NCBI GenBank assembly: GCA_964016885.1
Contig: OZ024742.1
Span: 275,838,001 to 275,902,000, forward strand
Origin: Eledone cirrhosa
Lineage: Eukaryota
Direction of reading: 5' to 3'
DNA length: 64,000 nt
Shown here: positions 8,896 to 62,545 of the stretch, in pieces
How the letters are laid out: every line of letters begins with the position of its first letter
Position numbering within the stretch: the first letter of the stretch is position 1
Notes under the pieces: model-generated
Told to the model about the DNA's origin: nothing
Database searches by the model: none
Seen by the model: only the letters and a program-made list of their open reading frames with translations
Program-made: the position numbers and the translations under genes

Positions 8896-9049
8896 CTTGC
8901 AATCGAAAGGTTGTGAGTTCAATTCTCAGACTGGGTGATGTGTTGTTTCCTTATATATATCAGATAGCTAAAGATATCTGATCTTTAGCTCCTACTTTAG
9001 TAGTGGAGCACTCTTTGATCCATACCACACTTCCATCCCAGTATTAATA

Positions 9050-16471: not shown

Positions 16472-19286
16472 TCAGAGTGATATAGATTTTCGAAGTTTTC
16501 CCACAATATGCATATGCTTGTGTTTAGTTAGGGCTTTATTTTCAGAGAATGATTTACCACAGATATCACAGTGATATGGTTTTTCGCCTGTATGAATACG
16601 TTTATGTATAATTAAGGTACTATTTCGAGAAAATGATTTACCACAGATATCACAGAGATATGGCTTGTCTCCTGTATGAATATATTTGTGTGTAGTTAAA
16701 TCACTACTTTGAGAAAACGATTTACCACATATGTCACAGTGAAATGGTTTCTCTCCTGTATGAGTACGTATGTGATTTGTTAAAGGAGTTTTATCAGAGA
16801 ATGATTTACCACAAATGACACAGTGATATGGTTTCTCACCTGTGTGAATGCGTTTATGTCTAGTTAAGACATTTGTATGAGAGAATGACATACCACAGAT
16901 ATCACAAAGATACAATTTATCTCTTGTATGAACTAGTCTGTGTTTAATTAAGTCACCATTTCGAGAGAATGATTTACCACAGACATCATAGTGATATGGC
17001 TTTTCTCCTGTATGAATACGTTTGTGTCTAGTTAAAGCACAATTTTGAGGGAATGATTTCCCACAGATATCACAGCAATATGGTTTTATGCCTGTATGAA
17101 TGCTTTCGTGAGCTTTTAAATGAGCTCTTTGAGAGAAGGATTTACCACAGATGACGCAGTGATATGGCTTCTCTCCTGTATGAGTATGTCTGTGTATAGT
17201 TAAGTATCTATTAGTAGAGAATGATTTACTACAGACATCACAGCAATATGGCTTCTCTCCTGTATGAGTTCGTTTGTGTTTAGTTAACTGGGTACTTCTA
17301 GAGAATGATTTACCACACACATCACAGCGATTTGGTTTCTTTCCTGTATGAATGTGTTTGTGAAATATCATGTCAGTTCTCCTAGAGAATGATTTACCAC
17401 AGATATCACAGTGATAGGGCTTCTTTCCTGTATGTATGTGTTTGTGACAAGTTAAGGTACCACCTTCATAGAACAATTTACCACAGATATCACAGTGATA
17501 TGGCTTTTCTCCTGTATGAGTACGTTTGTGTATAGTAAATACTCCATTAGTAGAGAATGATTTACCACAGATGTCACAGCGATATGGCTTCTCTGTTGTA
17601 TGAGTACATTTGTGTATAGTTAAGTGGGTATTCCTAGAGAATGATTTACCACAGATATCACAGTGATGGGGCTTCTTTCCTGTATGAATGCGTTTGTGAA
17701 ATATCATGCGAGTTCTCCTAGAGAATGATTTACCACAGACATCACAGTGATGGGCCTTCTTTTCTGTATGTATATTTTCATGAGATAACAAGTTAGCTCT
17801 TTGGGAGAAAGATTTACCACAGATGTCACAGTGATATGGCTTTTCTCCTGTATGGATACGCTTATGTAATGTTAACACAGTATTTTGAGAGAATGATTTC
17901 ACACAAATATCACAGTGATATGGATTCTCTCCTGTATGAATACATTTGTATTTAGTTAATGTAATTCGTTCAGAGAATGATTTACCACAGGTGTCACAGA
18001 AATATTGTTTCTCCCCTGTATGAGTACGTTTGTGCTTGGTTAAGGTATTGCTTTCAGAGAATGATTTATCACAGATAGAACATTGATATAGCTTTTCTCC
18101 TATATGAATATGTTTGTGTATAACTAACTCACAACTTCTAGAGTATAATTGTATAATTTACCAGAGATGTAATATTGATATGGCTTCTCTCCTGTATGAA
18201 TGCATTTGTGATTAGTTAAGGCATCATCTTCAGAGAATGACTTACCACAGATATCACAGCGATAAGGATTTTCTCTTGAATGAAGGAGTTTATGCTTATA
18301 TAAGTAACGTCTTGCGGGGAAAGATTCACCACAGATATCACAGCGATATGGCTTCTCTCCTGTATGAGTACGTTTGTGTATAACTAACTCACAACTTCTA
18401 GAGTAAAATTTACCACAGGTATCACAGTGATATGGCTTCTCTCCCGTATGAGTACGTTTGTGTCTAGTTAAAACACTTCCTATAGAGTAGGATTTTCCAC
18501 AGATATCACAGCGATATGGCTTCTCACCAGTATGAATACGTTTGTGTTTGGTTAAGTCACCACTCTGAAAGACAGATATACCACAGATATCACATTGAAA
18601 TGGCTTTACACCTGTATGCCACTGTTTATGTTTCTTTAAGTCTGAATTTCGGGAGAATGATTTACTACAGATATCACAGCAATAAGGTTTTATTCCTGTA
18701 TGAATGCTTTTGTGAAATGTCAAGTGTTCTTTTTGGGAGAATGATTTATCACAGATATCAGAGTGATATGGATTCTCACCTGTATGAGTACGTATGTGTG
18801 TAGTTAAGGTTCTATTTGCAGAAAATGTTTTACCACAGATGTCACAGTGATATGGCTTTATTCCTGTATGGATGCTTTTGTGTTCAGTTAATATATTATT
18901 TTGAGAGAATGAATTACCACAGATATTACAGTGATATGGCTTCTCGCCTGAATGAATACGCATGTGTAGAATTAAGCTTCCATTTGTAGAGAATTTTTAC
19001 CACAGATATCACAGTGATATGGTTTCTCTCCTCCATGAGTATGTTTGTGTCTAGTGAAATGACCATCTTCAGAGAATGATTTACCACAGATATTACAATG
19101 GTATCGCTTTTCTCCTGTATTAGTATGTTCATGAGAATTCAATTTATATTCTTTGGACAATGATTTACCTTTGATATCACAATGGTATGATGTTTTTATT
19201 ATCTCATTCAGTACCTCACTAGGAAAATCATTTCTTTCAGACTCTGATTTAATCTTAACCTGTTTCTTCCATAATTCATTTTCCAT
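16472..19286 (-). pseudogene. Tandem C2H2 zinc-finger gene (~30 fingers, single coding exon) with two frameshifts; pseudogene or truncated allele
   Basis: Continuous [16 protein letters not shown] repeats over three ORFs; 1-bp loss in an A-run at ~18995; 8-bp duplication (aattatac) at ~18143-18158; splice acceptor tttcag just upstream of 19325. Confidence 0.85.
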
Positions 19287-24760: not shown

Positions 24761-25377
24761 AACAAAGGGTCCCCTCATGGTCTTCCAACATACTACAAAT
24801 GACAGAGAAATCTCCCTCACATCACACTTCAGACTTTCCTTCTCCTATTTACCAATAAGTAAAAAGTCAACTTCCATATACTACGAATAACAGCCAAATC
24901 TCCCTCAAGTCCTTCCTTCTGCTACTTCCCATTAACAAACAAGGGAGCTTCTACAAAATCTCCCGACATACAAGAAATAACAGCCAAACAAGTAAAAGTT
25001 TCTGCTGAGAAAAAGGAGATTGAAAGTTTTTATTTTTCTCTTAAATCGTAAATAGTTAAAAACGAATAAATTCTCCCAAAATAATCGTAATTTTGGCACT
25101 ACAACGCTATTATCTGTCAGTCGAAGCAGCCGATGAAAGCAAAACATCGTTTATTTCCGTATTACTACCACGCGTAAGTGGAATTACTTAAATAAAAAAA
25201 AAAAATTTTTTTCACGCGTTTTTTTAAATTTTTTTTATTAAAGCATATAGATGTAAGTGGAGTTACTTAAATGAAAATATAGGTGGCCCTTAAAAGGGCC
25301 AAATTAGAATATACCGCTGCGTTTTTACAGTTTTACTAGTTACACATACACACACACACATATATATATATATACAC

Positions 25378-27933: not shown

Positions 27934-27943
27934 ATATATATAT

Positions 27944-28174
27944 GTAGGAGGTGAGTTTTATTGTAGTACAATAAAGCAATGCAGATATCGGATAAGAAGC
28001 ACTCTACAGTTTGTAGGACTGGAGTATACATAATATATAAGATCAAAAGATGGTTAAATGAGTTCCATATATTTTATTATGCGCATTTGAAAACACAAAT
28101 GTTATTGCATGATGATATTTGTTTTTGAAATGCGCATAATAAAATACATAGAACTCATTTAACCATCTTTTGAT

Positions 28175-28180
<6 letters not shown>
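27944..28180. mobile_element. Collapsed copy of the hammerhead fold-back element family
   Basis: Homologous to 38254-38661, with arms fused within stem II and the CUGANGA core lost. Confidence 0.75.
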
Positions 28181-28270
<90 letters not shown>

Positions 28271-28948
28271 ATAATAAAGAAGAAAGACGGTATCACTTGT
28301 TCATCCCTATTTATTATACTTATTTCGAAGACATGTCATTTGTATAATATCGGCCCTACGTGTTTTCTTCCGACAAAAATCCATGCAATATGTAAATATC
28401 CGTTGATATGAGATATTCGTTGATATCCGTTGATATAAGAACACGTAGGGCAGATGTTATACAAATGAAATACGCAAAAATAAAATAAATAGTGATGGGC
28501 AAATGATACCGTCTTTTGTTTATTATTATATAATATACATATACATATTAACAATTTCTTTTCATCGCACATATTATTAAACCCTTCAATATACAAACCT
28601 TAATTTAATATTATTCTTAATTTTTTCTCTTCATCAATTTTCAAATTCTTTTAAATTATATATTATCTTCCAACGGCTTTTTAACCTCTCTCTGTGAAAC
28701 AATATATATTTTTTCTCAGTTATAAAGGCTATCTCTCTCTTTCTATCACCCATCTCTCCTCCTATCTCATCCGTCCTTATTATACTCCTCCCCCACCATT
28801 CTTTACTCTCATCTCCTCCTCTTTTTCATCATTCCCCCCCCTCAGTTTTTTTCCCCAATATCACACATCAATCTTAAATTACTTTTCATATGTTGATTTA
28901 AAACTGCACTATTCACAAGTGTTTTTTAACCTTCATATCATGTATCCC

Positions 28949-29016
28949 TATTTTATCTGACGAAAACGCAAATGTCATCGCATGATATTTGTTTTTGAAA
29001 TGCGCATAATAAAATA
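28949..29016 (+). ncRNA. Type-I hammerhead ribozyme motif with a long AU-rich stem II, within a single-arm copy at ~28890-29053
   Basis: UAUUUUAU-CUGACGA-[aaacgcaaaugucau cgc augauauuuguuuuu]-GAA-AUGCGCAU-A-AUAAAAUA. Confidence 0.7.
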
Positions 29017-29053
29017 CATGGAACTCTTTTAACCATCTTTTGATCTTATATTA

Positions 29054-29224
29054 TATGTATATATATGTATGGTATATCTATATACATGTGTGTATGTATA
29101 TATATATATATGTGTATGTATATATATGTGTGTATGCATATATGTGTGTGTATGCATATATGTGTGTATGTATATATATATGTGTGTGTATGTATGTATA
29201 TATATATGTGTGTGTGTATGTATA

Positions 29225-30055: not shown

Positions 30056-31765
30056 TTCGGGTTTGTGTCAGGCAAAGGTACCACAGACGCTCTTTTCATT
30101 GTACGACAACTACAGGAGAAGTACCTAGCTAAAAGTAAACCCCTTTACTTAGCTTTTGTCGACTTGGAGAAAGCCTTCGACAGAGTCCCCCGTTCCATTA
30201 TCTGGTGGGCTCTTAGAAAACTAGGTGTCGACGAATGGCTTGTGAGAGCTATACAAGCCATGTATAAAGAAACAGTCAGCAAGGTTAGAATTAACAACGA
30301 ATATAGTGAAGAGTTTAGCGTAAAAGTTGGCGTCCATCAGGGCTCTGTTCTCAGCCCTCTACTATTTATTATTGCCCTTCAGGCTATAACAGAGGAGTTC
30401 AAGACCGGCTGCCCATGGGAACTCCTATACGCAGACGACCTAACACTCATAGCTGAATCAATGGCCGAGCTAGAGAAGAAATTCCAAACATGGAAGCACG
30501 GCCTAGAATCAAAAGGCCTTAAAATTAATCTGGCTAAGACCAAAGTTCTAGTTTGTAGGAAAGAAAATAAGGCGGCGGTCTCTTCCGGGAAGTGGCCATG
30601 CTCAGTGTGTAGGAAAGGCGTAGGTAGAAACTCCATTTTGTGTCAGAAATGCAAAGTATGGGTGCATAAAAGATGTAGTGGGATCACAGGTAAGCTAACT
30701 AAGAACATAGATTTCACATGTGGCCGGTGCTCTGGTGCAATAAGTAGCAGCAAGTGCCCACAAAATACTAGCTCTTTCAACTGCGCAGAGGGCTCTATAG
30801 AAATAGTGGACAGCTTCCGTTACCTGGGTGACAAAATCAGCAGTGGGGGAGGGTGCTCTGAAAGTACAGTAGCTAGAGTCAGAACTGGATGGAAAAAGTT
30901 CAGAGAGCTTATACCACTATTAGCCGCTAAAGGGTTCTCCCTAAAAATGAAAGGCAGGTTGTATGATGCCTGCATACGAACAGCAATGTTGCATGGCAGT
31001 GAGACCTGGGCATTGTGTGCAGAGGATATACGCAGACTAGAGAGGAACGAAGCTTGCATGCTCCGCTGGATGTGTAATAGTAATATACGTGAACAGCAAA
31101 GCATAAACGAACTAAGGAAAAAATTAGAAATAAGAGGGATCAGATGTTGTTTACTCGAGAGAAGGCTACGTTGGTATGGACACGTGATGCGCATGAAAGT
31201 CGATAGCTGTATAACAAAGTGCAGGGCAATAAAGATAGACGGTAGCCACGGAATAGGCAGACCTAGAAAAACCTGGGACGAGCTGCTAAACTCCGACCTC
31301 ACACACTGACACCTCTCCAAGACAATGTCACTGGACCGAGACCTTTGGCGGTACTCAGTAATAGAGAAGACCCGCCTTACCTAAATTACATAGTAAAACC
31401 TACTACAGTCAGTAGGCATCTCTAACAAAATACACCCCCGTCCCACCACCCCCACCCCATCCACACCGCCCCCTTCTATGTAAAGTTATGTTGGTGCCAC
31501 ACCATCCAGGCCGAAACAAATGAGATCGTGTAGGTGTCACGACAAAAAAACACACAGTCCACGCTGTAATGTGGCCGTGTAGGCAACATGGTAAAAACCT
31601 CCCAGACCCACACTGTAAATGTGGTTGGTGTTAGGAAGGGCATCCAACTGTAGAAAACCTGCCAGACAGTCCTATGCGAGCAAGACAATCACTCTTGCCT
31701 CAAGTGGGAAAACCCCCGTCCAAACCCATGCAAACGTGGAACACGGACGTTAAATGTTGATGATG

Positions 31766-31767
<2 letters not shown>
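30056..31767 (+). mobile_element. 5'-truncated young RTE LINE (RT with embedded PHD-like finger, 3' UTR, GAT tail)
   Basis: ORF 30065-31309: FVDLEKAFDRVP, GVHQGSVLSPLLF, LYADDL, FRYLG; premature TGA relative to the sister copy. Confidence 0.95.
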
Positions 31768-31802
<35 letters not shown>

Positions 31803-31899
31803 CATATATATATATATATATACATACATACATACATATATATATATACACACACATACATACATATACATATACATACATATATATATATATATACAC

Positions 31900-31980
<81 letters not shown>

Positions 31981-32270
31981 AAAATCAACTTTTTAAATGG
32001 AAGTTGCATTATTACAAGGTATGTCGCTAATTATTTATAAAACAGCTTATGTATTGTATTTTGTCTGAGGAAGGCATACCATATTTTTAATATGATATCC
32101 CAGAAATATATATAACGAAATAAATATGGTTTTATAAATATAGTTTCCATTTGTTTATTATCGTATATATATATATATATATAGTAATAATAATAAAATT
32201 GAAGACTAAAATCCAAAGAGGGGTCGATAAGGATAAATATATATCAAATATATAAGAACCGTAGAGCAAA

Positions 32271-33740: not shown

Positions 33741-33819
33741 ATATATATATATATATACACATACATATATATATACACATACATATATATATACACATAC
33801 ATATATATATATATACATA

Positions 33820-36800
33820 CATCATCATCATCATCATCATCATCAACGTTTAACGTCCGTATTCCACGCTTGCATCGGTTTGGACGGGGGTAGTCCCACT
33901 TGAGGCAAGAGTGATTGTCTTGCTCGCATAGGACTGTCTGGCAGGTTTTCTACAGTTGGATGCCCTTCCTAACACCAACCACATTTACAGTGTGGGTCTG
34001 GGAGGTTTTTACCGTGTTGCCTACACGGCCACATTACAGCGTGGACTGTGTGTTTTTTTGTCGTGACACCTACACGATCTCATTTGTTTCGGCCTGGATG
34101 GCGCGGCACCAACATAACTTTACATAGAACGGGGTGGTGTGGATGGGGTGGGGGTGGGACGGGGTGTATTTTATTAGAGATGCCTACTGGCTGGAGTAGG
34201 TTTTACTATATATTTAGGTAAGGCGGGTCTTCTCTGTTACTGAGTACCGCCAAAGGTCTCGGTCCAGTGACATTGTCTTGGAGAGGTGTAAGTGTGTGAT
34301 GTCGGAGTTTAGCAGCTCGTCCCAGGTTTTTCTAGGTCTGCCTATTCCGTGACTACCGTCTATCTTTATTGCCCTGCACTTTGTTATACAGCTATCGACT
34401 TTCATGCGCATCACGTGTCCATACCAACGTAGCCTTCTCTCGAGTAAACAACATCTGATCCCTCTTATCTCTAATTTTTTCCTTAGTTCGTTTATGCTTT
34501 GCCGTTCACGTATATTACTGTTACACATCCAGCGGAGCATGCAAGCTTCGTTCCTCTCTAGTCTGCGTATATCCTCTGCACACAATGCCCAGGTCTCACT
34601 GCCATGCAGCATTGCTGTTCGTATGCAGGCATCGTACAACCTGCCTTTCATTTTTAGGGAGAACCCTTTAGCAGCTAATAGTGGTATAAGCTCTCTGAAC
34701 TTTTTCCAACCAGTTCTGACTCTAGCTACAGTACTTTCAGAGCACCCTCCCCCACTGCTGATTTTATCGCCCAGGTAACGGAAGCTGTCCACTATTTCTA
34801 TAGAACCCTCTGCGCAATTGAAAGAGCTAGTATTTTGTGGGCACTTGCTGCTACTTATTGCACCAGAACACCGGCCACATGTAAAATCTATGTTCTTAGT
34901 TAGCTTACCTTTGATCCCACTACATATTTTATGCACCCATACTTTGCATTTAGGGCATAAAATGGAGTTTCTACCTACGCCTTTCCTACACACCGAGCAC
35001 GACCATTTCCCAGAAGGGACCGCCGCCTTGTTTTCTTTCCTACAAACTAGTACTTTGGTCTTAGCCAGGTTAATTTTAAGTCCTTTTGACTCTAGGCCGT
35101 GCTTCCATGTTTGAAATTTCTTCTCTAGCTCGGCCATTGATTCCGCTATGAGTGTCAGGTCGTCTGCGTATAGGAGTTCCCATGGGCAGCCTGTCTTGAA
35201 CTCCTCTGTTATAGCCTGAAGGGCAATAATAAATAGTAGGGGGCTGAGAACAGAGCCCTGATGGACGCCAACTTTTACGCTAAACTCTTCACTATATTCG
35301 TTGTTAATTCTAACCTTGCTGACTGTTTCTTTATACATGGCTTGTATAGCCCTCACAAGCCATTCGTCAACGCCTAGTTTTCTAAGAGCCCACCAGATAA
35401 TGGAGCGGGGGACTCTGTCGAAGGCTTTCTCCAAGTCGACAAAAGCTAAGTAGAGGGGTTTACCTTTAGCTAGGTACTTCTCCTGTAGTTGTTGTACTAT
35501 GAAAAGAGCGTCTGTGGTACTTTTGCCTGACACAAACCCGAACTGCATTTCATCTAGGTCAATTCTCTCTCTGATTAGTTGCGCTATTACTTTTTCCGTG
35601 ACCTTCATGACCTGGTCGATTAATTTAATGCCTCTATAGTTACTCCTATCTAGGGCGTCTCCTTTACCCTTATAACAGTTAACGATGATGCTGTATGCCA
35701 GTCCTTCGGAACAACCCCATTCTGTACGACTTGGTTAACTATGCGGGTGACCATGGTGTGTCCCACCGTGCCAGATGCCTTCAGCATCTCAGCAACTATT
35801 TCCGAAGGCCCAGCCGCCTTACCCGTCTTCATATCCTTGATTGCCTTACTTATTATACTCCCCTCGACTAACACTGCTGGTCCCTCTATTGGGTCGATAT
35901 GGGGGAGACTGTCTTTCTCCCATTTATTCTCCTCATTTAGTAGCCTTTCATAGTGACACTTCCAAGCTACCTTCTTATCAGCGTCGGTGATGGCAAGTGT
36001 GCCATCGTGGTTTAGTACACACTTCTCCCCGACAATATCACGGTTTTCCTTGACGCATTGCCTAGCAATCCTGAACACCTCACGTTTTTGGTCATCGCGT
36101 TGTAGAACATGCTTGAACTTTCTTTCCTCAGCTTCCCTTCTTGCTAAGTACACTTGTCTCCTAGCTTCCCTCCTGACCACTTGATAGTCTTCTCTACTTC
36201 CCCCATCCCGCCATACTTTCCAAGCCTGCTTTTTGGCCTTAATTGACCCCTCCACCTTACTGTTCCACCACCATGTTACTCTCCTCCTGCCTACAGGCCT
36301 GCTCCAGCCACAGACTTCGTCTGTCGCCAACAGCAGGTTTGCTTTCAGAAATTCCCACTCTCCCTCTATATTGTCCGACTCTAAATGTTCTTCCTTACTG
36401 TCGAAAGCATCAAGTAATATGCTTTGAAATTTATTCCTGGCTGTGGGGTCCTTTAGCTTCCATATTTTTCTCCTGAGGATAGTCCTCTTCTGCTGTCGAG
36501 TACGTTTCGTCCTGACTATGAGGTCGCTAATTATCAGTCTATGTTGGGAGGTGCATTCTTCATGGGGGAGGGATTTAGTGTTTACAACAGACACTCTGTC
36601 ACGTCTTCTGGTAAGGATATAATCTACCTGGCTTGTGTGTTCCCCGGATCTATAGGTGATCAGGTGATTGTCACGTTTTTTGAAGTTAGTGTTACAGATA
36701 GTTAGGTTATTTGCATCACAGAATTCCAGGATTCTGGAGCCTTCCTCATTTCTAGTACCAAACCCATAGCCTCCATGGATTTCGTCGTAGCCGTCACAAT

Positions 36801-38217: not shown

Positions 38218-38257
<40 letters not shown>

Positions 38258-38378
38258 GGAGGTGAGTTTTATTGTAGTACAATAAAGCAATGCAGATATC
38301 GGATAAGAAGCACTCTACAGTTTGTGGGACTGGAGTATGCATAATATAAGATCAAAAGATGGTTAAAGGAGTTCAATA

Positions 38379-38449
38379 TATTTTATTATGCGCATTTCAA
38401 AAACAAACATCATCAAACAATAATATTTGTGTTTTCATCAGATAAAACA
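38379..38449 (-). ncRNA. Type-I hammerhead ribozyme motif (left arm)
   Basis: Reverse complement of 38553-38623. Confidence 0.7.
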
Positions 38450-38552
38450 GGAGAACATGATATGAAGGCTAAAAAAACACTTGTTGATAGTGCAGTTGAT
38501 TTAAAACTGCACTATCAACAAGTGTTTTTTTAGCCTTCATATCATGTTCTCC

Positions 38553-38623
38553 TGTTTTATCTGATGAAAACACAAATATTATTGTTTGATGATGTTTGTT
38601 TTTGAAATGCGCATAATAAAATA
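38553..38623 (+). ncRNA. Type-I hammerhead ribozyme motif (right arm)
   Basis: UGUUUUAU-CUGAUGA-[aaacacaaauauuauu guuu gaugauguuuguuuuu]-GAA-AUGCGCAU-A-AUAAAAUA. Confidence 0.7.
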
Positions 38624-38661
38624 TATTGAACTCCTTTAACCATCTTTTGATCTTATATTAT

Positions 38662-38867
38662 ATATATATATATATATATACATACATACATATATATATA
38701 CATACATATATATATATATATACATATATATACATACATATATATATACATATATATACACGTACATACATATATATATATATATACACATACATATACA
38801 TACATATATATATATATACACATCCATTTTTATATATATACATACATATATATATATATACACATAC

Positions 38868-38898
<31 letters not shown>

Positions 38899-38978
38899 CA
38901 TACATATATATATATACACATACATATATATATATACATACACACATATATATATACATATATATATATACATACATA

Positions 38979-39019
<41 letters not shown>

Positions 39020-39029
39020 ATATACATAC

Positions 39030-39064
<35 letters not shown>

Positions 39065-39066
39065 CT

Positions 39067-39114
<48 letters not shown>

Positions 39115-39140
39115 CATATACATACATATATATATATATG

Positions 39141-39188
<48 letters not shown>

Positions 39189-39235
39189 TATATACATACA
39201 TATATATATATATACATACATATATATATATATAT

Positions 39236-39266
<31 letters not shown>

Positions 39267-39395
39267 CATACATCCATATATATATATATATATACATACA
39301 TATATATATATACATACATCCATATATATATATATATATATACATACATATATACATACATATATATATACATACATATATATATATACATACAT

Positions 39396-39432
<37 letters not shown>

Positions 39433-39912
39433 CATATATATATATACATACATATATATATATACATCCATATATATATATATACACATACATATATACA
39501 TACATATATATATATACACACACACATACATATATATATATATACATACATATATATATATATACATACATATATATATACATACATATATATATACATA
39601 CATATATATATATATACATATACATACATATATATATATATATACACGCATACATATATATATATATATATACATACATATATATATACATACATACATA
39701 TATACATATACATACATATATACATACATATATATATATATACATATATACATACATATATATATACATATATATACACATACATATATACATATATATA
39801 TACATATACATACATATATATATACATACATATATATATATATATACATACATATATATATATATATACACATACATATATATATATACATACATATATA
39901 TATATATACACA

Positions 39913-39944
<32 letters not shown>

Positions 39945-40192
39945 CATATATATATATATACACATACATATATATATATATATACATACACACATATATA
40001 TATATATATACATATACATACATATATATATATATACATATATATATACATACATATATACATATACATACATATACATATATCCACATATATACATATA
40101 TATATACATACATATATATATATACATATATACATACACATACATATATATATAAATATATACATACATATATATATACATATATATATATA
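38662..40192. repeat. ~1.5 kb (TA)n/(TACA)n microsatellite
   Basis: Direct reading. Confidence 0.95.
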
Positions 40193-41399
40193 AAAACTAC
40201 AATAACAACAGAACAAATCCGCTTCTTAAAACACTGTGTTTCCTCCAAAACATACACAACAAACATATCAAAACAAGTAAATAATTTATTATTGAACAAA
40301 ACACAAGCCGAACGACTAAAACACACAATAACAGTTAATATGAAAAGAACAACATACACAAAAGTCAACGCACTCTACAGACAGAAACGCATTAACGGTA
40401 AGGAAATCCGAAATCTCATCACAGCAAACGAGAGAGATAACTTCATGAGCGTCATCAGACGTGAAACGAAATACGCTCAAAACGAATGCAATAGGCATTT
40501 CAAGAAGAAATTAGAATGGATGAATAAGAAAAAACTACAAGAAAGGAAAACCGAATATTCTCAAAAATACCCAGATAACATCGACAATATCCGTATGACT
40601 GATGTAAAACTACCGGAAGAATTTACCAATGACCACACAGTAAATATCTATGGGAACACTTTAATCAGTGAACAAGAACAACAAATCCTACGGTTACCAC
40701 CAAAATTTGCCATCTACAAAAAGATTAACCCTATGGAGTGCAAAACGGAGCTGGAAAAGTGTTTCACAAAAATACGTTGGAATGCAAAGGTAAACAACAA
40801 CAACAATAATAACGGTAGTAGTAATATAAACAATAACTCTGGGTATAGAAATAACAGCCATAACCATAACAATGGCAGGAAAGTGAGAAATAGTGATAAT
40901 GGTAATAATACTAGCGATAGACAGAACAACAACCACAATAATAATAATAATAGAAACATTAACCACAGACACAGCAACAGCGACCACAGTAGTAATAACG
41001 GTAACAATACGAACAACAACAACAATAACCACAGTGGTAATAATGGAAATAGTACATGTAGCAACATCAACAAAAACAAGAAACATAATAATAGTAACAA
41101 CCACAATGGTAGAAATAACAGTAACAACAACAATAACGGTGAAGTAAACAACAATACATCTAGCAATCATAACAATAATAATAATGCTAATGATAGAAAC
41201 AACAACAACCACCCTGATAACAACAATAGCAACACACACAACTATGACGATAGATATAATGACAACCCCTTAGAGAAACTATTTTTCAACCCAGCTGACA
41301 AAACATATAAGATGGGTAATATCTATCCTACGAGGTTACCCTTTAATAAAAGAGTTTGCATACCACAGCAAATAGATGATGAGACAGAGGCACATTTAG

Positions 41400-43529
41400 G
41401 AAATAAATATCGGTGCACATGCAACATAATATAAAAGACAAAAAGTACTGGTGTGTGTGTGTGATAAAGTTTTACTTCATAGAAGTCAAAGGTGTATAAT
41501 GTAAAGGGTTGTTACCCGATGGCAATAATACCATTCTGAAGTTGGTAGAAATATCTTGGCGCTCTCATCTCAGGCTGGTGAGCTGCATTGTGCTGGTAAC
41601 GAAAGGGTCGTCCAGAAAGAATCACCAGCTATGGTCGAAGATGTTACCACTTCAGGAATCAGGAGGCGAGAGAGAGATTTCGCGGTAAATCGCTCCTTTT
41701 ATCTCTGTTGACCGGAAGTGACCACTAGGGAGTTTGGTCAATCCCAAAGGGAAGCAACTCCACCTACTTCCTGTCTAGAGAACAGCGATTCGATTGTTGT
41801 GGCAGGGGAGGCAACTCTTACTACAATATCTCCCGCCAGATTTTTAAAACATAAAAATCGAAAGAAGCATGCATGGAGTAAGATGGCGAGCATGTAAGAG
41901 GCATGAAAACTATGGTAGTACAGAGTAATTGAAGTAAGAGAAAAGGTCAAAAGTTCAAATGTACAAAATATAGTTCACAGGTGTGCAATCACATGACAGC
42001 AGGAAAGAAAGTGTGTTCCAGAGAATGAATGCAGGTGGTTTCTGTTCTGTGGTATATCGTGAAATTTCCAACCTCCGAATGGATTTTCTCACAGGAAGAG
42101 TGCTGCAAAAATAAATTCTCTGGCTTTGGTTGTTGGTGAAGCTGTGTTGATGTATTGCTGTTGCTGTTGCTGCTACTGTTGTCGCTGTATTGCTGTTGCT
42201 GTTATATTGCTGTTGCTGTTGCTGCTGCTGTTGCTGTTATATTGCTGTTGCTGTTGCTGCTGCTGTTGTCTCGCTGAGTGAGCGTATTTGGTGTTTAAAT
42301 TCACAGTAAAAAAAATTTTTTTCAGAAAAAATGAGTTGCGCAAAGTGCTAGAAATAGCAGCCGAAGTTGATGGTCGATGTCGAGAATGCGTTGACCTGGA
42401 AGGGTCAAGAGGCCAGCGACCAAAGAAATAAGCATTCTGAATAAATGCGCAGTTTTCAACGGCAAATTTACGTAGTAAATTTTTAAACCGGCAAATAGGA
42501 GAATATAGCTTAAGGCTGAAGAATCCTTGGCGAGAAACGTTATCTCTGGCGTGCGGCTATCTCTGTGAGTCGAGAATTTGTGCTGCCTACACGTGCCAAT
42601 ACAAGGTTGAAAAAATAATATTTCTAACGCGCGAGAAAATGATAGTGCAAGTGTGAAAGTGACAATGATGAAAAAGAAAGGCTTCACTCAGCATAATTAT
42701 TGGTGTGAACTTTGGAAAAAAAACTTGAACGATGAAGAAAACGATGAAAAAAAAAAGCCAATGGTTCATCGAAAATAAATGTTCCTGTTGAAATGTTTTT
42801 TAAAGAATATCAAATTTCTTTTTTTTTTTTTTTTGAAAGAGTTCGTTGTAAGAAACGAGAAACATATATATATATCGTGAAATGTTATTTATTTTTTTTG
42901 TTTTGAAAGTGTTCGTTGTAAGAAACGAGAATATATATCGTGAAATGCGACAGTTAGTTGATGCGTGAGAGAAAAAGTCTGTCTGAACGCGAATTCCACA
43001 TGTGCGTGTGTCCGTTTCTTTGAGTATTTTCATAGTTTGTCGATAAATTTGCTGTGTATTCGTAATGTTACCCACACAACTCCAGAATCTGCTATCTTTT
43101 TCTTTTTTCGGGGTGACCACTTATAGCGATGAACGGCTGCGTGTTCGTGTCACGTCGGGGTAGCCAATATAGCGAGAGTACTGGGTTGTATGAATGTAAC
43201 AAAATGAGACATGGTTTGTGTGTATAATATTTAATTAACAATGGTAGATAGTATAGTTGACATGTCAAAGAAATAGATGATAGAATGAAACAAAGTTAGT
43301 CGTTACCGTTTTGATTGCCAGGCAAACGCGGCTGGCAGAAGACGCCTGGCTAAGGCCCAGGCGCCGGAAGGCAAATGAGAGGCTCTTGGCCTGGTGCCGA
43401 AAGGGCAATGAGAGAATGAGAACTTAAAGTTGTTAGTTTTATAGGGTTCTGACCGGAAGTTACAGAAAGGGTTCTACTTCCCGTCTAGATGTTAATCCAA
43501 ACAAGGGAGACAACCGCTACACACAGTTC
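41400..43529 (-). mobile_element. Non-coding LTR-retrotransposon-like insert with tRNA-Trp-like PBS, PPT and diverged LTRs
   Basis: LTR-like 43168-43521 (tatagcg...cgctaca); adjacent PBS TGGCTACCCCGACGTGA at 43150-43166; PPT ggcgggagatat next to TGTAG at 41825; shared motifs ccggaagt, ctacttcc.gtctaga, gggag.caac. Confidence 0.6.
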
Positions 43530-46074
43530 ACCATAGCTAGAAATAAGATTAGACAAGTAGTAGACAGGTATACTAAGAGACAGAGCAGACCAGAGGCCCA
43601 ACAACTTGGGAGGAAACCTGTAGAAGGCTTGGTTAGCCTCAAGCACCGCACAAGGGATGGTGAGGTAGTGTGTCTACCCACAGATAAGTCTGGTAGGATG
43701 TCAATAGATAGCATGCCGAACTACATCGAGGCTATGCAACCCCACATCACCAACACGAGCGAAGTTGCACAACAAACACACGATGGGAGAGAAAAAATCC
43801 TCAACGCTCACATGATGATGTGGACTGACATCCTAAAGCCAAGCAGACGCACTGCCAACAACTTCCAGGCGTCTAACAATGGCATACCACCCTTGTATGG
43901 GCTCCGCAAAGACCACAAGACAGTCGACGACCCGACAACAGGACCACCAACAAGACCCGTATGCGGAGCTAATATAGCTAGCAACTACAGGATCTCCTAC
44001 TTCCTCTCAATGGTTATACGCCCCATAATCAAGATGTCCCCAGATGTATGTGAAAGTACAGAGGACCTCCTCAGCAGAATCAGTGAGTGCAACAAAAACA
44101 GGAGCCTATCCAACTGCATAATAGGCAGCATGGATGTGGTGTCACTGTACCCATCCATTAACATTGATTTTTCTGTGAAAAGATGTGTGGAGATGATCAT
44201 TGAGAGTGAGGTGGAGTTCTGCGACGTCGACACAGACGAACTGGGCCTCCTACTTAGACTTACCTACGACACTGACTACCTAGACAGCCATGACCTTAGA
44301 TGTTTCTGCCCTAGTAGACCTATAAGAGGTAGACCCCCCACCATAACCTCAATGGCAAAAAAGACTCCCATGGGAAGGTGGATTGGGTGGACCAAAGCTA
44401 TACGGACCCCCCAAAACAATGACCAGGTAAGAAAAATGGTCGCACATGCAATAGGGGCTAGTATCAAAACTACCCTAAAGGGCCACATATTTAAGTTCAA
44501 TGAGAAAATCTACACCCAAAATGAGGGAGCAGCCATCGGCGTCAGCATAGCTGGTGATGTTGCCAACCTTTTCATGGTATGGTGGGAAAGGAGACTTAAA
44601 GATCTCCTTAATGAAAGCTCCATAGACCTCATCATGTACTCTCGTTATGTAGACGATATCAATATAGTTATAAGAACACCCCCACTAGAGAGCACTAACA
44701 AGTTTGATTTAGAACGTAGCACGATGGAAAGCATCCAGAAGATAGCTAATTCCATACACCAGAGTATAACTGTAACTATCGACTTCCTTTCCAAACACCC
44801 TAACAATAGACTACCTGTATTAGACACAGAACTCTGGATTAACACTATAGACGAGAGAGCCCAAATTCTCCACTCACACTATGCTAAACCCATGGCCTCC
44901 AAATACCTGATACTCAAAAACTCAGCAATGTCCAGTAGTGCTAAGTTTAATATTCTGATCGCAGATTTGGTACGAGTGATGAAGAATGTGTCCAGCATGT
45001 GCGACCCAACAGAAATGGAAAGACACATCCAACACTTCATCAACCGCATGCGGTTCTCTGGCTACAACCAAAGAGACAGAGTCAGAGTATACGAAGGAGC
45101 CATGGAAAAGTATAAGACCCTCATAGAACTGGACATGAAAGGAATTTGCCCATTATACAGGAGTAAATCATGGAATAGCTTAGATAGGGCTAGACATAAG
45201 ATAGGGAAGGCCACATCATGGTACGACAACCAGAGATATCAGAGTGTCATGTTTGTGGACGCCACCCCTGGAGGGAAATTAGCTAACCAGTGTAGAAAGG
45301 CCCTGAGAAAGACCCACTTAAAAATAAAGGTGGTAGAAAAGCCAGGAACCACCATAAAATCCCTGATCAGCAAAACCTACCCTTTTAAGAAAACCCACTG
45401 TACCAATAGGAAATATATCATATGTAAGGTGAACCCCCGGATAAACTGTAAAACTAGAAACGTAGTCTAGAGCATAAGATGTACAGAGGGTACTTGCAGA
45501 AACATGACAACAACATACATAGGCGAAACAGCTCGTAGCATAGGTGAAAGGATAGACCAACACTGGGGGGAACTAAAAGGACGAAAAAACGGGTCAGTAC
45601 TATACGAACATGCTAGACAACAACATGACGGTAACATAGACAACATAGAAATTAGAATAATATCTAAACATAGGAATGACCCAGCAGAGAGGCAAATCAG
45701 AGAGGCCAGTGAAATAGAAATTAGAAGACCAAAGCTAAACAGAAAGAATGAGTGGAACAACAACAACACCCAAACAAACAACACTGACCTAAGAGAAGTA
45801 TAAATAAGTAAATAAAATAAAATAAAATAAGATAAATAAATACATACACAAGCACAATAACAACAAGCACATAAACACACACGAATCACCCAGCAGACAC
45901 AACACTATACACACTAGTCACACAGCAAACATAACGCTATACACACACGCAAACGCATGCGCAAAGAAGACAAAATAAAATAAACAAACAAGCAAATAAA
46001 TAAATAAATATATAGACAGCCTGAATATAAAAAAATGGCGTAGACATACAACACAACAGGAGGAAAAAATATAA

Positions 46075-46116: not shown

Positions 46117-46590
46117 AAATTATGTAAACTATATATATGTGTTTGTCTCTATATTGTATCTGTATTATTTTTGACCGTCGGTCAGTCAATGGCAACATTG
46201 AGGACCGATTAAGTTAGATCGCAGATATAAAAGACAGCGAGAAGCGAAAACCAACCAAACAGTGAGTGTGTTCTGCTATTAATTCTGGCAATATTACAAA
46301 AATATGACCCTCCCCAAGTATAACAATATTTGTTTCGACACACGATTTCATATAAAAAACCTCGCTAAACTATATATATATATATATATATGTATGTATA
46401 TGGAACGAGAATTAGCCGTCGAAATGGCTTGAGCTCAGCCGTCGGGGTCCTACTCATTCCTATTACCCACTCTACTACCCTAAGTATTGAGTACTTTGGT
46501 GCGTTATGGTCCACCTGGTTCCTTACCACATTTCCTTTGTTATATGTATGTATATATATATGTGTGTATGTATGTATATATATATATATG

Positions 46591-46716
<126 letters not shown>

Positions 46717-46717
46717 T

Positions 46718-49700
46718 TAATTCTATAATTAAGGGTGTATCTAATAGGATTTCCACACTCTCTAAGGACGTAGGAATATTTAATGAACATGCGGAGTACT
46801 ATAATAATGCCCTAGCAAATTCAGGTTACTCTAGTAAAATACATTATAATAATAGTAACCTTAGAAAGTCTCCGCTTACTTATAATAATAATAACATAAT
46901 ATCACATAACATGGCCATGAATGGAAGTAGGAAGCATAATAACCGTAAAAATTACATAGGTGTATCTGAACCCATCCATAAGTTAACCCACGGGACTCGT
47001 AATAGGGAATATAATACCTCTAGGAAACAAGTCGAACCCTCTGAGCGCTCACTCATTGGTGATAATTTTGCTAGATCTAATTCTAATAATGTTGCTTCTA
47101 CTGATCCTATTATTGGCCCTAATCCTTTTGATGGGATTCCAGACGACAGCAGATCTACTGGAGGTAGAAACAGTAAGAGACTTAATGGAATTTTGGCTGA
47201 TTCTAATAATGCGGTTTTAACTAATCCTTGTAGTAACCCTAGTCTTGATAGTGGGATATTAGATAATGGTAGAGTCGGTAAGGATAAAAATAGGAGACTA
47301 AATACTTATTTTAACCCGCCATATAATCAGGAAGTATAAACTAATATCCCGAGGTCTTTCTTTTCTATCTTAGAGAAAAATTTCCCCCCTTCTCATAAAT
47401 ACCATAGTGTTTTTAATAAAAATGTTATTAAACTTTCATTCTCTACCACCCCTAATATTAGTTCTCATTTAGCTAGCACTAACAATAGGAAAATTAGGGA
47501 TGGATTCTCCTCTCTGCATACTACTAGTCTGAACAGATCTGGAAATGCCTTACCACCAGAACAGACCTTATCTAATAGCAATCCTACGTGTAATGCATCA
47601 CTACTTCAGCCAACCAATAGCACCCGGAAGTGTAACTGTAGAGTGAGTGCTAACTGCCCTTTAAACGGTAACTGCCTCTCTAAGAACATCGTCTATGCTT
47701 GCGTAGTTATAACAAATTCCTCTAATAGAACTTATATAGGCTCTACATCTAACACTTTTAAGACTAGGTTTAATTCTCATATCTCTAATTTCAAACATGT
47801 TAAGTTTAAGAATTCTACTTCTTTAGCGCACTATATCTGGGATCTTAAGGGGGCTAATATACCATATAGCCTTAATTGGCGTTTAGTAGCACGCTCTAAT
47901 AACCTTTCTACACATACTAAATTTTGTAATCTCTGTATCCTCGAGACACACTCTATAATTTTCTCTAGCGAATCCTTACTTAATAGAAAGTCTGAGATAT
48001 TCTCTTCTTGCCCCCACACTATTTCTAATTCTTACTTTTATTATAAACCTAAAGGTTCTAGTAGTAGAAATTGTATCCATTAGCTGATATATTCCATTAC
48101 TTATTTTTTAGTTTAGGTTCTTTTTGTTTACCACCATTATTATCATCATTATTATCATTGGTTTTTGACAACTCTTTATTCTAGCTCTCATAATCTTTTG
48201 GCTACTATACCATATCTATCTTCTTACGCATTAAATTTTCACTATTAACACCTTATGAGTATATATCTGATTATATATTTTACGTTATTTTATTTTATTT
48301 CATTTTATTTTATTTTATCTTATTTGGATTCTTCTTTGGATACCCCCCCCCCCCCCACCCCCATGCGCACATAAACTTATTGTCAACCCCTTCAAATAGA
48401 TTATGATTATATTTAACCCCCTCTCTTTTACGCTCCTTTCTATTATTTAATATAGTATATTGACTCTGATTTTATGCTCCTTTGTATCATTCATACATTT
48501 CTTTTTTTCTGTCCCTATTAGCCTACCATAATTCTGCTTAAGTCAGTTTTTTAGATATCGTTATGTAAATGATAGTAGAAAATTTCATTCCTTTATATAT
48601 ATATTTGTAGTGAATTATTAACGTTTATAAATTTTGATTACTTAAACCATAACTAATATTGTATTGCCTTATTAGATATTTTAAATATTTTAAATATTAA
48701 TTTATCAAATAGGGTTTTCGAGTCATTTACCGGGGTTGTTTCCTAAGTTTTTACTTAACTGCATGTGAGACCTAAGTATATACTTTTGTTTTTGTTTTTT
48801 AATTTCCGGTTGATTCTATTTATTTATTTATTTATTAATACTACTGTGCATTCTATTTACTGTCTGGCCCTTACTCACTCATCCACATATATGTCTGTTT
48901 ACCAACCTTGTAATTATAAGTAATTATATATTATATTATGTTAATTATTTTATATTGTATTTGTTATTGTACTATCGATCCTTATTACTTACCGTTGATT
49001 ATATGTACCATTATGATATGTTTAATTTTATATATCATGTAAGATGTTTATACTTTTGTACCATCATAATTTTGGGTATTGTACAATTTATATTTTTTTC
49101 TCACCTACTCTGTAACTCTATATGAATTGATTTGTTAACTTGCATGCCATTATATATTATATATTATATATGTTATTATATTATTATTATAGTATTATTG
49201 TGACATCTATATTGTTTGTGTAAATTAACCGGAGATTATCTATTATATTATATTATATTATATAGTTAATAATTGTATAGCTTATTATATATTATATGTG
49301 CTACTTATAATCATATCATATTATTACCTCATGTATATTAGATATACGTATTATTATTATTATTATTATTTTTATTCCTATCATGCTTATTTATATTTAA
49401 AGTCTAATAAGGTTTAATTTGTGCTGTTAAAAATGGATATGTGTATTGATGTATGTGTATATGTGCGTACGTGTGCGTACATATATACATATGTATATTG
49501 TACCTTTTAATTTTTATTGTAATTTTAATATTGTTACAAGTATATTATATTATATTATATAGTATTGTATATAATTCCCGCTCTATATAACCACCTTTGT
49601 TTAGCTCTAGTTTTTTTTTGCTTTGGACTATATTTGTAATATGGTTCTAAATGTTATACACCTCCTTAGTGATTTTTATTATATATTTTTACCCATAATC

Positions 49701-51329: not shown

Positions 51330-51745
51330 GAATAGTATGGTAGAATATTAAGTGTTAAATATTAATTGAACAAGTACTTTCATGCTTTCGCAATCTTCAG
51401 GTTCATATTCTGTGGTGACAGTCAAGTTTACAATTTTCAACTGTAACGAGATGGGTAAATTTTGGGCCTTATATACAGTGAAAAGCGGCTACAGAATGCT
51501 AAATGTTGCAAACTGTATTTCGACCAATTGGTGTGTAGTTTCACTGGATTACTGAAGCTGATTGGTTTAGGCGTCATAGTTGGTTGAGCATGTCTAACGA
51601 CTTCTATTTGGCTCTATCCAAAGTATCAATTGTTTTGTTATTTTTAGAAATGATGAAAATAGCATTTTCTAGGGTTTTTATACCCCTAAGAATTATTATT
51701 GTTCAATTAACACTTAACACTTAATATTCTACCATACTATTTCAT
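51330..51745. mobile_element. Short element with ~43 bp inverted ends and an internal hammerhead
   Basis: aatagtatggtagaatattaagtgttaa...ttaattgaacaa / ttgttcaattaa...ttaacacttaatattctaccatactatt. Confidence 0.65.
51367..51405 (-). ncRNA. Minimal type-I hammerhead ribozyme motif
   Basis: Minus strand: UGAAC-CUGAAGA-U-UGC-gaaa-GCA-U-GAA-AGUACU-U-GUUCA; palindromic stem III AAGUACUU. Confidence 0.7.
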
Positions 51746-60099: not shown

Positions 60100-62545
60100 A
60101 TACGATGCAACACAATAACACACCACACCACACTAACCTACACTACACCAAACCAGATTATACCATACCTTGGTAAATTTATGATAGGTTTCCATGTTAT
60201 AACTACACCAAACAAAACCATACCAAACTACACCAAACCAAACCACACCATAACAAACTACACCATACTACATCACACCATGCTATTGAACTCAGTGTGA
60301 AAAATTTTCTTGCTGCTTTTTTTGTCTTTTTTTGTGTGTGTGCTTACCACCCAATCTGACATTAAAAGTGTTCGCAATTAACTATTTTTAGCACATATTA
60401 TCAATGAAGACTTTGAAACCTGTTGAAAATGACTTGCTTTGTAGAAAAAAAGAGGGCGGAAAGTGGGTGGAAATACCATTCACAAAGCTTGTCATTTTTG
60501 ATTGCAGTGAAAGTCATATTTGTTGTTAATATGGTAATGGAGGTACATGGCTTAGTGGTTAGAGCATTGGCCTTGCAATCGAAAGGTTGTGAGTTCAATT
60601 CTCAGACCAGGTGGTGTGTTGTTTTCTTGAGCAAGACACTTTATTTCACATTGCTCCAGTTTACTCAGCTGTAGAAATGAGATGATAGGGACTGGTGTCC
60701 CTATCATTCCACTGCAAAGTGGTCGTGTAGGTGCTACGGCAAAAACCACCCAGCACTCATTGTAAATGAGGTTGGTGTTAGGAAGGGCATCCAGCTGTAG
60801 AAATCAAGCCAGAATCAGTTCCCGTCCCACCTTTGCAAGCAAGGAAAAGTGGACGTAAAATGATGATGATGGTAAAAGCATAGTCGGCTGTGAGCATGTT
60901 GGAGGTTGGAAAACCATACCACATTAAACTACATCAAACTACACCATACTAAACTACACCATACTACATCACACTATGCTATTAATCTTAGTGAGAACAT
61001 TTTTCTTCCTATTTTTTTTTTTTCTGTGTGTGTGTGTGCTTACCACCCAATCTGATATCAAAGGTGCTCACAAATGACTATTTTTTTACACATTATCAAT
61101 GTATATAACATGGAAACTTATCATTTGCAATAGGTTCCCATGTCATAACTACAACAATCCAAACCACACCATAACAAACTACACCATTCTACATCACACC
61201 ATGCTTTTGATCTCAGTGTGAAAAATGTTCTTCCTGTTTCTTTTTTTTGTGTGTGTGTGTTCTTACCACCCAATCTGACATCAAAGGTGCTGCAATTGAC
61301 TATATTTCGCACATATTATCAATAATTATGACATGGAAAACTGTCGAAAATGACTAGCTTTGTAGAAAAAAGAGGGAGGATGTGGGTGGAAATACCATTT
61401 ACAAAGCTAGTCATTTTTTATTGCAGCGGAAGTCATATTTTTTGTTAATATGCTAAAAGCATAGTCTACTGCGAGCTTCTTGGAAGTTGATAACACATAC
61501 AAACATGAAGGAAAAAATTTTTTATAACATAAATCAAAGTGGAAATTTAAATCCTCACTTATAATAAAGCACACCACAGCACATTAATCTACCTCAATCC
61601 ACACCATATACTTCACCATAACCATACTTCACTATTTAGTAAATTTATTACAGAACACCTACTCCTACCATTTACATCACATGGACATTAATGTGACAAA
61701 TTTGCTACCTGCTTTTTTTTTTTTGTGGTTACCACCTCAAACTAACATCAAAGGTGCTTGCAAATGACTATTTTCCCACACATTATCAATGAATATGACA
61801 TGGGAATCTATCGTTTACAATTGGTTTGCATTTCATAACTTCACCAAACCAAACCACACCATCACCATACTACATCAGACCAAGCTATTGATCTTGGTGT
61901 GAATGAATTTTTTTTTTTGTATGTGTGCTTACCACCCAATCTGACATTAAAGGTGCTCCCAATTGACTATTTTTTTTCCACTTATCAATAATTATGACAT
62001 GGAAACCTGTCGAAAATGACTATCTTTGTAGAAACTTCACCACACCACACCATACTACATCACACCAAGATATTGATTTTGGTGTGACAAATTTTCATCT
62101 GGCATTTTTTTTTTTGTTTTTTTTTTGTGCTTACCACCCAATTTGACATAAAAGGTGCTCGCAAATTACTATTTTATGCACATATTATCAATGGTTATGA
62201 CATGAAAACCTGATGAAAATGACTAGCTTTGTAGAAAAAAGAGGGAGGATGTGGGTGGAAATACCATTTACAAAGCTAGCCATTTTTTATTGCAGCGGAA
62301 GTCATATTTTTTGTTAATATGCTAAAAGCATAGTCCACTGAGAGCTTCTTGGAAGTTGATAGCATATGCAACAATGAATGAAAAATTTTTTTTATAACAT
62401 AAATCAAAGTGGAAATTTAAATCCTCACTTATAACAAAGCACACCACAGCACATTAATCTAACCCAATCCACAGCATATACTTCGCCATAACCATACTTC
62501 ACTATATGGTAAATTTATTACAGAACACCTACTCCTACCATTTAC
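60100..62545 (+). repeat. Complex tandem modules: (CACCA)-rich blocks and a motif repeated ~6 times, with ~870 bp-spaced duplicates
   Basis: cttaccacccaatctgacat..aaggtgct at ~60343, 61039, 61262, 61729, 61928, 62130; 61340-61670 resembles 62215-62545. Confidence 0.8.
60539..60871 (+). mobile_element. Full-length tRNA-derived SINE with RTE-derived tail
   Basis: A box TGGCTTAGTGG, B box GAGTTCAATTC, cttgagcaagacacttt central motif, aggaagggcatccagctgtagaaa...ggacgtaaaatgatgatgat tail. Confidence 0.9.

Follow-up and report, generated by a model that had tools for sequence, protein, structure and literature searches.

The 408-bp fold-back insertion described here was found in the window, that is the whole 64,000-nucleotide stretch of Eledone cirrhosa DNA analyzed (contig OZ024742.1, positions 275,838,001 to 275,902,000). 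We read it as two 5'-truncated pseudo-LTR (pLTR) copies of an abundant Hydra-clade Penelope-like element (PLE), placed head to head in (TA)n by priming from both target strands, and give this reading a probability of about 0.88. The kind of object is known: publications on the Hydra clade already describe insertion in (TA)n, an inverted copy, a tail on one side and hammerheads on both strands. In a typical PLE insertion the pLTR stands next to a 5'-truncated copy in inverted orientation, and one of the ends bears a tail (PMC8557442 Fig. 2; PMC3846280); the window hairpin has the identical architecture in its shortest form. Likewise, Penelope-13_HM shows an inverted 5'-truncated copy with a hammerhead on each strand (PMC8557442 supplement S1, S2), and in Schistosoma truncated PLEs were taken as the source of hammerhead pairs that lie on opposite strands at a distance of 100-700 bp (PMC4209133). 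As an object the hairpin is therefore ordinary, and its value is that of a data set; such fold-back copies can also be mistaken for MITEs.

The two arms (38341-38497 and 38505-38661) are perfectly complementary, in 157 of 157 positions, and enclose a loop of 7 nt. This agrees with the preliminary description of the sequence, which had proposed perfect inverted arms of ~157 bp, each with a type I hammerhead, and both arms match the hammerhead descriptor. It had also placed the arms between (TA)n tracts, which is right for the insertion as a whole, flanked by (TA)n on both sides, but not for the left arm, from which the (TA)n is separated by an 87-nt non-palindromic tail. Because of this tail the insertion is 408 bp long and asymmetric, and the interval, previously given as a fold-back of ~320 bp only, includes 87 nt (38254-38340) outside the palindrome. 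The parts of the insertion and its two relatives in the window are:

38218..38253, no strand: (TA)n tract of the left target side; other copies likewise end in (TA)n
38254..38340, minus strand: one-sided 87-nt tail between two 3' end points, leading to the 5' UTR in full-length copies
38341..38497, minus strand (sense): left arm, a 5'-truncated pLTR contiguous with the tail; arm plus tail (244 nt) equal the 5' pLTR of locus L265
38379..38449, minus strand: type I hammerhead motif of the left arm, predicted cut after 38387
38495..38507, no strand: arm junction, with a 3-nt overlap (GTT/AAC) and the 7-nt loop; the same junction is found at 78 places
38495..38661, plus strand (sense): right arm, a 5'-truncated pLTR without tail, identical to the pLTR of L265 and L042
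38553..38623, plus strand: type I hammerhead motif of the right arm, with a 16-position stem II, a palindromic stem III and a predicted cut after 38615
38662..40193, no strand: (TA)n/(TACA)n tract of the right target side
27943..28192, no strand: second, shorter fold-back copy of the same family, a tail and two arms meeting inside stem II
28526..29061, plus strand: third copy, of an older subfamily, with 3' UTR and pLTR and the core CUGACGA

An assembly chimera, which the preliminary description had considered as a possible origin of the hairpin, is unlikely, because the identical 31-nt junction is present at 78 genomic places. Thirty of these 78 loci were fetched and all of them show the tail on exactly one side, 27 on the left and three on the right. 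A full read-through transcript is predicted to form the 157-bp duplex (-270 kcal/mol), so the long dsRNA foreseen for read-through RNA is upheld by the folding prediction.

A 25-mer of the arm has 22,318 exact matches in the genome, and its control has none; all copy counts were obtained by pattern matching of short words. The first 100 of the 22,318 matches contain 17 pairs (34 matches) inverted less than 300 bp apart, 15 pairs (30 matches) inverted at 1-8 kb, and four same-strand neighbors at 1-8 kb; no same-strand neighbors within 1 kb, i.e., head-to-tail repeats, were found among these 100. Scaling 34 of 100 matches to 22,318, on the basis of the first 25 Mb of one contig only, gives a rough 3,800 perfect short hairpins in the window's family, which would represent a large potential source of long dsRNA. 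In 20 regions around such matches, the same ends flank pieces of one ORF. The copy at L031 has an ORF of 810 codons, counted from the first Met and in the same orientation as the hammerhead, and shares with L033 an inverted pLTR arrangement, while L040 is a direct pLTR-ORF-pLTR unit of 3.7 kb. The 5' pLTR of L265 is identical to the window's left arm plus tail (244 nt) and to its right arm (167 nt), and this copy shows an open stretch of 751 residues that reaches the natural stop. In the window's family, the ATG is located 219 nt downstream of the predicted cut. The suggested link to a PLE is supported by arms 100% identical to the L265 pLTR and by longer copies carrying the 810-aa ORF.

The 810-aa protein has 18 homologues with 29-38% identity. 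Its sequence shows the motifs QFDI, ITMG, YRDD, FLDV, LIYEC..YFGST, and FKAR, as well as the Hydra-clade motifs DKT (133), CNCRIKNKC (669), CNLCLNE (769), INRR (787), and CLH (797); between the GIY and YIG positions there is one Cys only, and CCHH is absent. Neither an RT nor a GIY-YIG domain was found by Pfam in this ORF or in its seven aligned homologues, a PDB search with the ORF gave no match, and profile comparison with the window's other PLE RT was weak (probability 18%). The ORF is 38% identical to a second window ORF that has a GIY-YIG match with an E-value of 2.5e-4, below Pfam's cutoff. Since Pfam and PDB did not recognize the protein, the domains were called by motifs and by this identity to the weak GIY-YIG ORF, and they point to a single ORF with a putative RT and a putative C-terminal GIY-YIG, as in an EN+ PLE. 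The copies also show the pLTR features of EN+ PLEs (direct and inverted copies, 5' truncation, and one-sided tail), a type I hammerhead inside the pLTR and sense to the ORF, and insertion in (TA)n, which is the Hydra-clade preference.

The Hydra clade has been defined by DKT, CxCX5C, CxxC, and CxH without CCHH, a C-terminal GIY-YIG, a (TA)n target and hammerheads (PMC8557442). Hydra-clade EN+ PLEs such as Penelope-13_HM and Hydra-1_Obim (Craig et al. 2021, PMC8557442) show the same C-terminal GIY-YIG layout and target, and their hammerheads, like those described here, are sense, near the 3' end and with a 4-bp palindromic stem III. The element differs from the Hydra clade of PMC8557442 in its tail (87 nt vs. 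30-40), in its unit length (3.7 kb vs. mostly <3 kb), in the RWK motif, which is replaced by RWT or RWI in the window's family and kept in six of the seven aligned homologues, and in stem II, with 16 positions compared to 3-7 bp in the 25 Hydra families listed. An 11-mer of the window hammerhead had no match in the part of the PMC8557442 supplement text compared, and the part of PMC13282606 consulted makes no mention of Hydra, hairpin or ribozyme. By its motifs, the element appears to be a Hydra-clade PLE family without a match in the literature compared. Asn-rich insertions before the linker, absent from the homologues, are found at residues about 590-668 of the L031 ORF and in the ORFs of L191-L194, as in Adineta Penelopes. 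Two other assignments were discarded: Naiads have an N-terminal endonuclease, and a Kolobok/T2-MITE origin, suggested by a TTAA-AGGAG stretch, a motif of that group, was ruled out because the repeat runs past the stretch and the stretch is variable.

The 30 fetched loci show the same centre junction on at least seven haplotypes, therefore the hairpin was likely rebuilt at each insertion. The mean arm-to-arm distance was 1.0 within a locus and 4.4 between loci (29 scored), and 15 of the 29 had identical arms; at L058, the two arms have different haplotypes. The 17 short pairs, which were not chosen by their centre, show many different centres, and such variable centres carry either short overlaps or extra letters. 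The centre junction thus arises repeatedly, and as a rule a single source supplied both arms.

These observations bear on the preliminary proposal of a non-coding, retrozyme-like family, in which the hairpin would be transcribed, self-cleaved, circularised and copied as a unit by a PLE enzyme. In its favor are the exact centre at 78 loci, the window's haplotype shared by seven of the 30 sampled, and the proposal that animal retrozymes derive from PLE pLTRs (10.64898/2026.07.22.740005). Animal non-LTR retrozymes (Cervera and de la Pena 2020, PMC7229834) likewise have a type I hammerhead, are AT-rich, PLE-related and a few hundred bp long, but they are head-to-tail repeats that give rise to circular RNAs, whereas the window has a single head-to-head element identical to part of a coding one. 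The tandem 150-450-nt unit of retrozymes was not seen (no same-strand neighbors at <1 kb in the first 100 of 22,318 matches), and a non-coding family apart from the autonomous element is not supported either: the window haplotype is that of the ORF-bearing L265, and the same ends, in longer copies, enclose the coding sequence of the 810-aa protein. Moreover, one centre occurs on several haplotypes with the tail on either side, other pairs have other centres, and a 157-bp duplex would bury both ribozymes. The proposal is thus largely refuted already, and we consider it very improbable. A DNA transposon of the MITE or fold-back type, with a chance resemblance of its termini to a hammerhead, would explain why the terminal inverted repeats are long, why the interiors vary and why the insertions lie in (TA)n. 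We regard this as having next to no chance, because the interiors encode an RT-type ORF and no transposase, which we count as refuting, direct pLTR-ORF-pLTR copies exist, the tail makes the ends asymmetric, and the hammerhead covaries across families.

The two remaining alternatives keep the same parent. In one, the inversion arises by self-priming fold-back of a single cDNA or on an antisense template, as proposed for such palindromes (PMC3846280), and the common arm end described below is a pause or annealing hot spot at a 6-bp palindrome rather than the start of an RNA. It would fit the haplotype shared by both arms and the four of 18 double-ended junctions that are plain palindromes. However, arms stop at this site even where the partner ends elsewhere, a non-template G is enriched there, and the arms of L058 differ in haplotype; in addition, the loop polarity in 27 of the 30 loci would require the tail-less strand to fold back, and a folded-back tail-less strand cannot supply the tail. 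We hold this alternative to be unlikely, although it is the strongest of those considered. In the other, the stubs are a self-perpetuating, SINE-like satellite with an internal promoter, transcribed from the common start to the tail and re-inserted in trans, the hairpin being rebuilt each time. The internal pLTR promoter of Penelope (PMC2377424) is in agreement with it, as is the fact that nearly half of the arms start at one nucleotide and none of the scored body-linked pLTRs does. Nevertheless, the sampled stub haplotypes match coding copies, with no stub-only lineage in that sample, and priming at the 5' pLTR of a normal mRNA yields the same product, so this possibility seems to us still less probable than self-priming.

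Regarding the common start, 12 of 30 arms not chosen by their junction end 103-108 nt before the 25-mer, seven exactly at one C|A step. This step is located 71 nt before the hammerhead core and 260 nt before the tail end, and the window's right arm begins 4 nt inside it. Genome-wide, 4,853 arms start at that A, with a letter other than C before it, and 5,724 run further upstream, i.e., about 46% of the arms that reach the step stop there. A control C|A step 20 nt upstream has 69 starts, 70-fold fewer. None of the 22 scored body-linked pLTRs (eight of 30 were unscored) begins at the common start, which a simple single-promoter model does not predict. We take the context of the C|A step to fit the metazoan initiator consensus.

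Counted by eye, the first 100 arms have 44 G, 39 T and 17 A as the letter before the A; the control step has G in 18 of 69 (p=0.013, by eye). In 17 of 30 common-start arms the partner arm ends at the same place, and 16 cases of G in 30 loci were classified by eye as non-template (eight), ambiguous (four) or derived from the partner arm (four). The 18 distinct double-ended junctions comprise the four plain palindromes, three ambiguous cases and 11 others, seven of which show G before the A. As the C|A site is a 6-bp palindrome, annealing bias contributes at the start. In a sister family, the one equivalent site that could be guessed gave 171 matches, with G in 11 of 100, and no start signal. 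The common start is probably the 5' end of the RNA, and we lean slightly towards the excess G being a copied cap, an extra 5' G being an accepted sign of cap copying in LINE-1 and SVA (PMC4859970). For Penelope itself, a promoter inside the pLTR has been described (PMC2377424). The family stands apart from the PLE insertion units in the literature by the large proportion of its arms that end at one nucleotide with excess G; our search found no report of such arms, nor of twin priming or a cap G in PLEs.

According to the proposed mechanism, the GIY-YIG domain would nick both strands of (TA)n. One cDNA would begin at the end of the tail and a second one 87 nt inward, each start site being an AT-rich end able to pair with the target, and both would copy sense RNA toward its 5' end. 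In about 46% of the arms extending that far, copying would halt at the C|A step, where the capped transcript likely begins. The cDNA 3' ends would then anneal, here by GTT/AAC, before fill-in; on joining, the right arm of the window would have lost 4 nt and the left arm 14 nt of the common end. A transcript from the C|A step reaches the tail sites after 173 and 260 nt, therefore priming in the first pLTR gives only stubs. Full copies would need a longer read-through RNA, which fits their scattered 5' ends. This mechanism can do without the antisense self-priming suggested in PMC3846280. The hairpin would carry its hammerhead as a passenger and is itself likely a dead-on-arrival by-product.

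A biochemical precedent is Poseidon of Anolis (PAc), whose purified protein nicks and extends both target strands (Frangieh et al. 2024, PMC11167929). PAc has two RT start sites bounding the tail and an AT-rich target, its main template is uncut RNA, and its cleavage needs protein (PMC11167929). PAc belongs to another clade, and its tail and hammerhead overlap the ORF start (PMC11167929), in contrast to the downstream ATG found here. The LINE-1 element also offers a comparison, since it shows an extra cap-like 5' G (PMC4859970). By the general account of inversion through twin priming, LINE-1 is primed from both target strands, as proposed for the window hairpin, with each priming event copying a different part of the RNA. 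In the window, by comparison, both cDNAs copy the same segment, which gives a palindrome.

In the plus strand, the hammerhead motif shows a stem I of eight pairs, one of them G-U (38553-38560/38616-38623), the core CUGAUGA (38561-38567) and GAA (38604-38606), a stem II at 38568-38603 with 15 pairs, A-U closing and one C-U mismatch at position 4, the stem III palindrome AUGCGCAU (38607-38614), and A38615 as N17. When a stem I of >=7 and a stem II of >=4 were required, the descriptor had no matches on either strand of 100 window shuffles (block-wise dinucleotide), and a loose descriptor gave 0.01 matches per window. Rfam hammerhead families had no match in the window, either at gathering score or at E<=10, and the Rfam matches on the hairpin were only non-specific miRNA hairpin models below threshold. 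The preliminary description had called the long stem II with A-U closure atypical; the length is indeed without counterpart among the 25 listed families, but one published Hydra hammerhead has an A-U closing pair (PMC8557442). It had also linked the motif to PLE type I hammerheads that, with their palindromic stem III, can cleave as dimers, and folding prediction supports a dimer form, with a probability of about 3e-5 for the active monomer fold in the predicted ensemble and -10.5 kcal/mol for the 8-bp stem III duplex. A rare active monomer combined with a stable stem III duplex resembles dimer-type hammerheads, and the predicted ribozyme would need a dimer or protein help.

Further hammerhead relatives were obtained by scanning 722 kb of sequence for the motif. 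A second family (B), found from window position 32065, has 11,572 matches (24-mer, up to one mismatch), the same inverted layout and an ORF 57% identical to that of the window's family; ORF linkage among the hammerhead families was established only for the window's family (A) and B. A pLTR stub of family B lies in the window at 31978-32165 (plus strand), with a long-stem-II hammerhead at 32057-32122. Eighteen motifs, selected on stem I >=5 and on the first three pairs of stem II, were aligned: 97% of the cells are paired and 11 of the 16 pairs show double changes, a level well above shuffled and slid controls (one of 500 shuffles as high). The core is constant except N7 in all 18 rows, and it is also, across families, better conserved than the flanks, a point on which the earlier reading of the motif depended. 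At stem II positions 5-9, which were not selected on, 52 of 55 cells are paired in 11 representatives (shuffle mean 39; 0 of 20,000 as high), with seven G-U to one A-C overall in this test, although related rows make such tests look stronger. All 11 leave position 4 of stem II unpaired (C-C in eight, C-U in two, and A-C in one).

Across the hammerhead families studied here stem II has 11-16 positions, and the stem III palindrome is kept across a GCGC to ATAT change. Read by eye, the subfamily changes in stems I and II swap Watson-Crick and G-U pairs on the sense strand. The covariation across several families supports the predicted hammerhead fold, which Rfam misses, and argues for structural selection on it in the parent element. 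Long-stem-II hammerheads in PLEs were not found in the literature text searched, and the figure supplements of PMC4209133 may contain some; in PMC6155905 and PMC13725137 a 'long' stem II means 6 bp. Hammerhead matches with stem II regions of 49-53 nt and a palindromic stem III were also observed (L068:45-128 and 526-609; L037:3725-3814; L154:2146-2233; L054:1112-1197; L194:552). Similar 'half-core' cases of 35-50 nt have been reported in Naiads, and these may be complete ribozymes whose stem II is long.

No pile-up of 5' junctions was found at the cut site, which showed 219 matches over about four positions compared to 158 over about two at a control 16 nt downstream, the pattern demanding foreign sequence just before the site. 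About 22 of the first 100 cut-site matches are small indels rather than junctions, and the retained letters spread over four positions (by eye). Among 30 pLTRs continuing into the body, 23 read through the cut site and one begins there; furthermore, every stub was copied through it. The RNAs copied were mostly uncut, and the lack of a pile-up is in line with the preference of PAc for uncut RNA as its template. An absent genomic cleavage footprint does not show that the ribozyme is inactive, and self-cleavage is here a prediction.

How PLEs form inverted pLTRs, which RNA strand is copied and what the hammerhead does have been stated as open questions (PMC3846280, PMC8557442). They become directly testable in this young family, which offers more than 20,000 arms, a start point defined to one nucleotide, matched controls and coding copies that are nearly intact. 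In a wider reading, to which we give even odds, the stubs are a fossil record of how PLEs replicate. They would show that the enzyme takes sense RNA, capped and uncut, as its template, begins at two sites, uses both target strands and copies until the template ends at its 5' side; this reading also includes an undescribed hammerhead subtype missed by Rfam, with a 3-bp stem IIa, a conserved unpaired C-pyrimidine and a long stem IIb, possibly a protein- or dimer-gated switch. If true, it would settle whether head-to-head PLE palindromes are copied from a sense or an antisense template and would locate the promoter with single-base precision. Both the cap-site footprint and the hammerhead subtype add modestly to what is known, and both can be tested.

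The window contains other elements of these kinds. At 8055-8506, a further fold-back and tail insertion lies between (TA)n tracts, with 153-bp arms at 98.7% and a compact type I hammerhead only in its longer arm (8298, minus strand); another compact type I match is found at 51364-51408 (minus strand) and in L068 too. A third Hydra-type element (46491-48083, plus strand) has a GIY-YIG match (E 2.5e-4) and at least 150 close matches in the genome; its ORF is followed, at a distance of 1.7 kb, by a canonical hammerhead with short stems (49789, plus strand). Fragments of PLE ORFs at 43437-45470 and 40194-41434 (both plus strand) have a CX4CxxC linker and, judged by motif, resemble Neptune. In addition, an inverted RTE-like LINE pair (30056-31848 and 33742-35542, ORFs to 37545) is 94.5% identical over 1.8 kb and 1.9 kb apart, and a 135-bp fold-back (93%) at 8818-8952 lies within tRNA-derived SINE-like sequence related to 60542-60869. 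A histone 3' stem-loop reaches the Rfam gathering score at 25261-25305 (minus strand), with no histone ORF of at least 120 codons listed nearby, and a long C2H2 zinc-finger array extends over two reading frames at 16472-18996 (minus strand).
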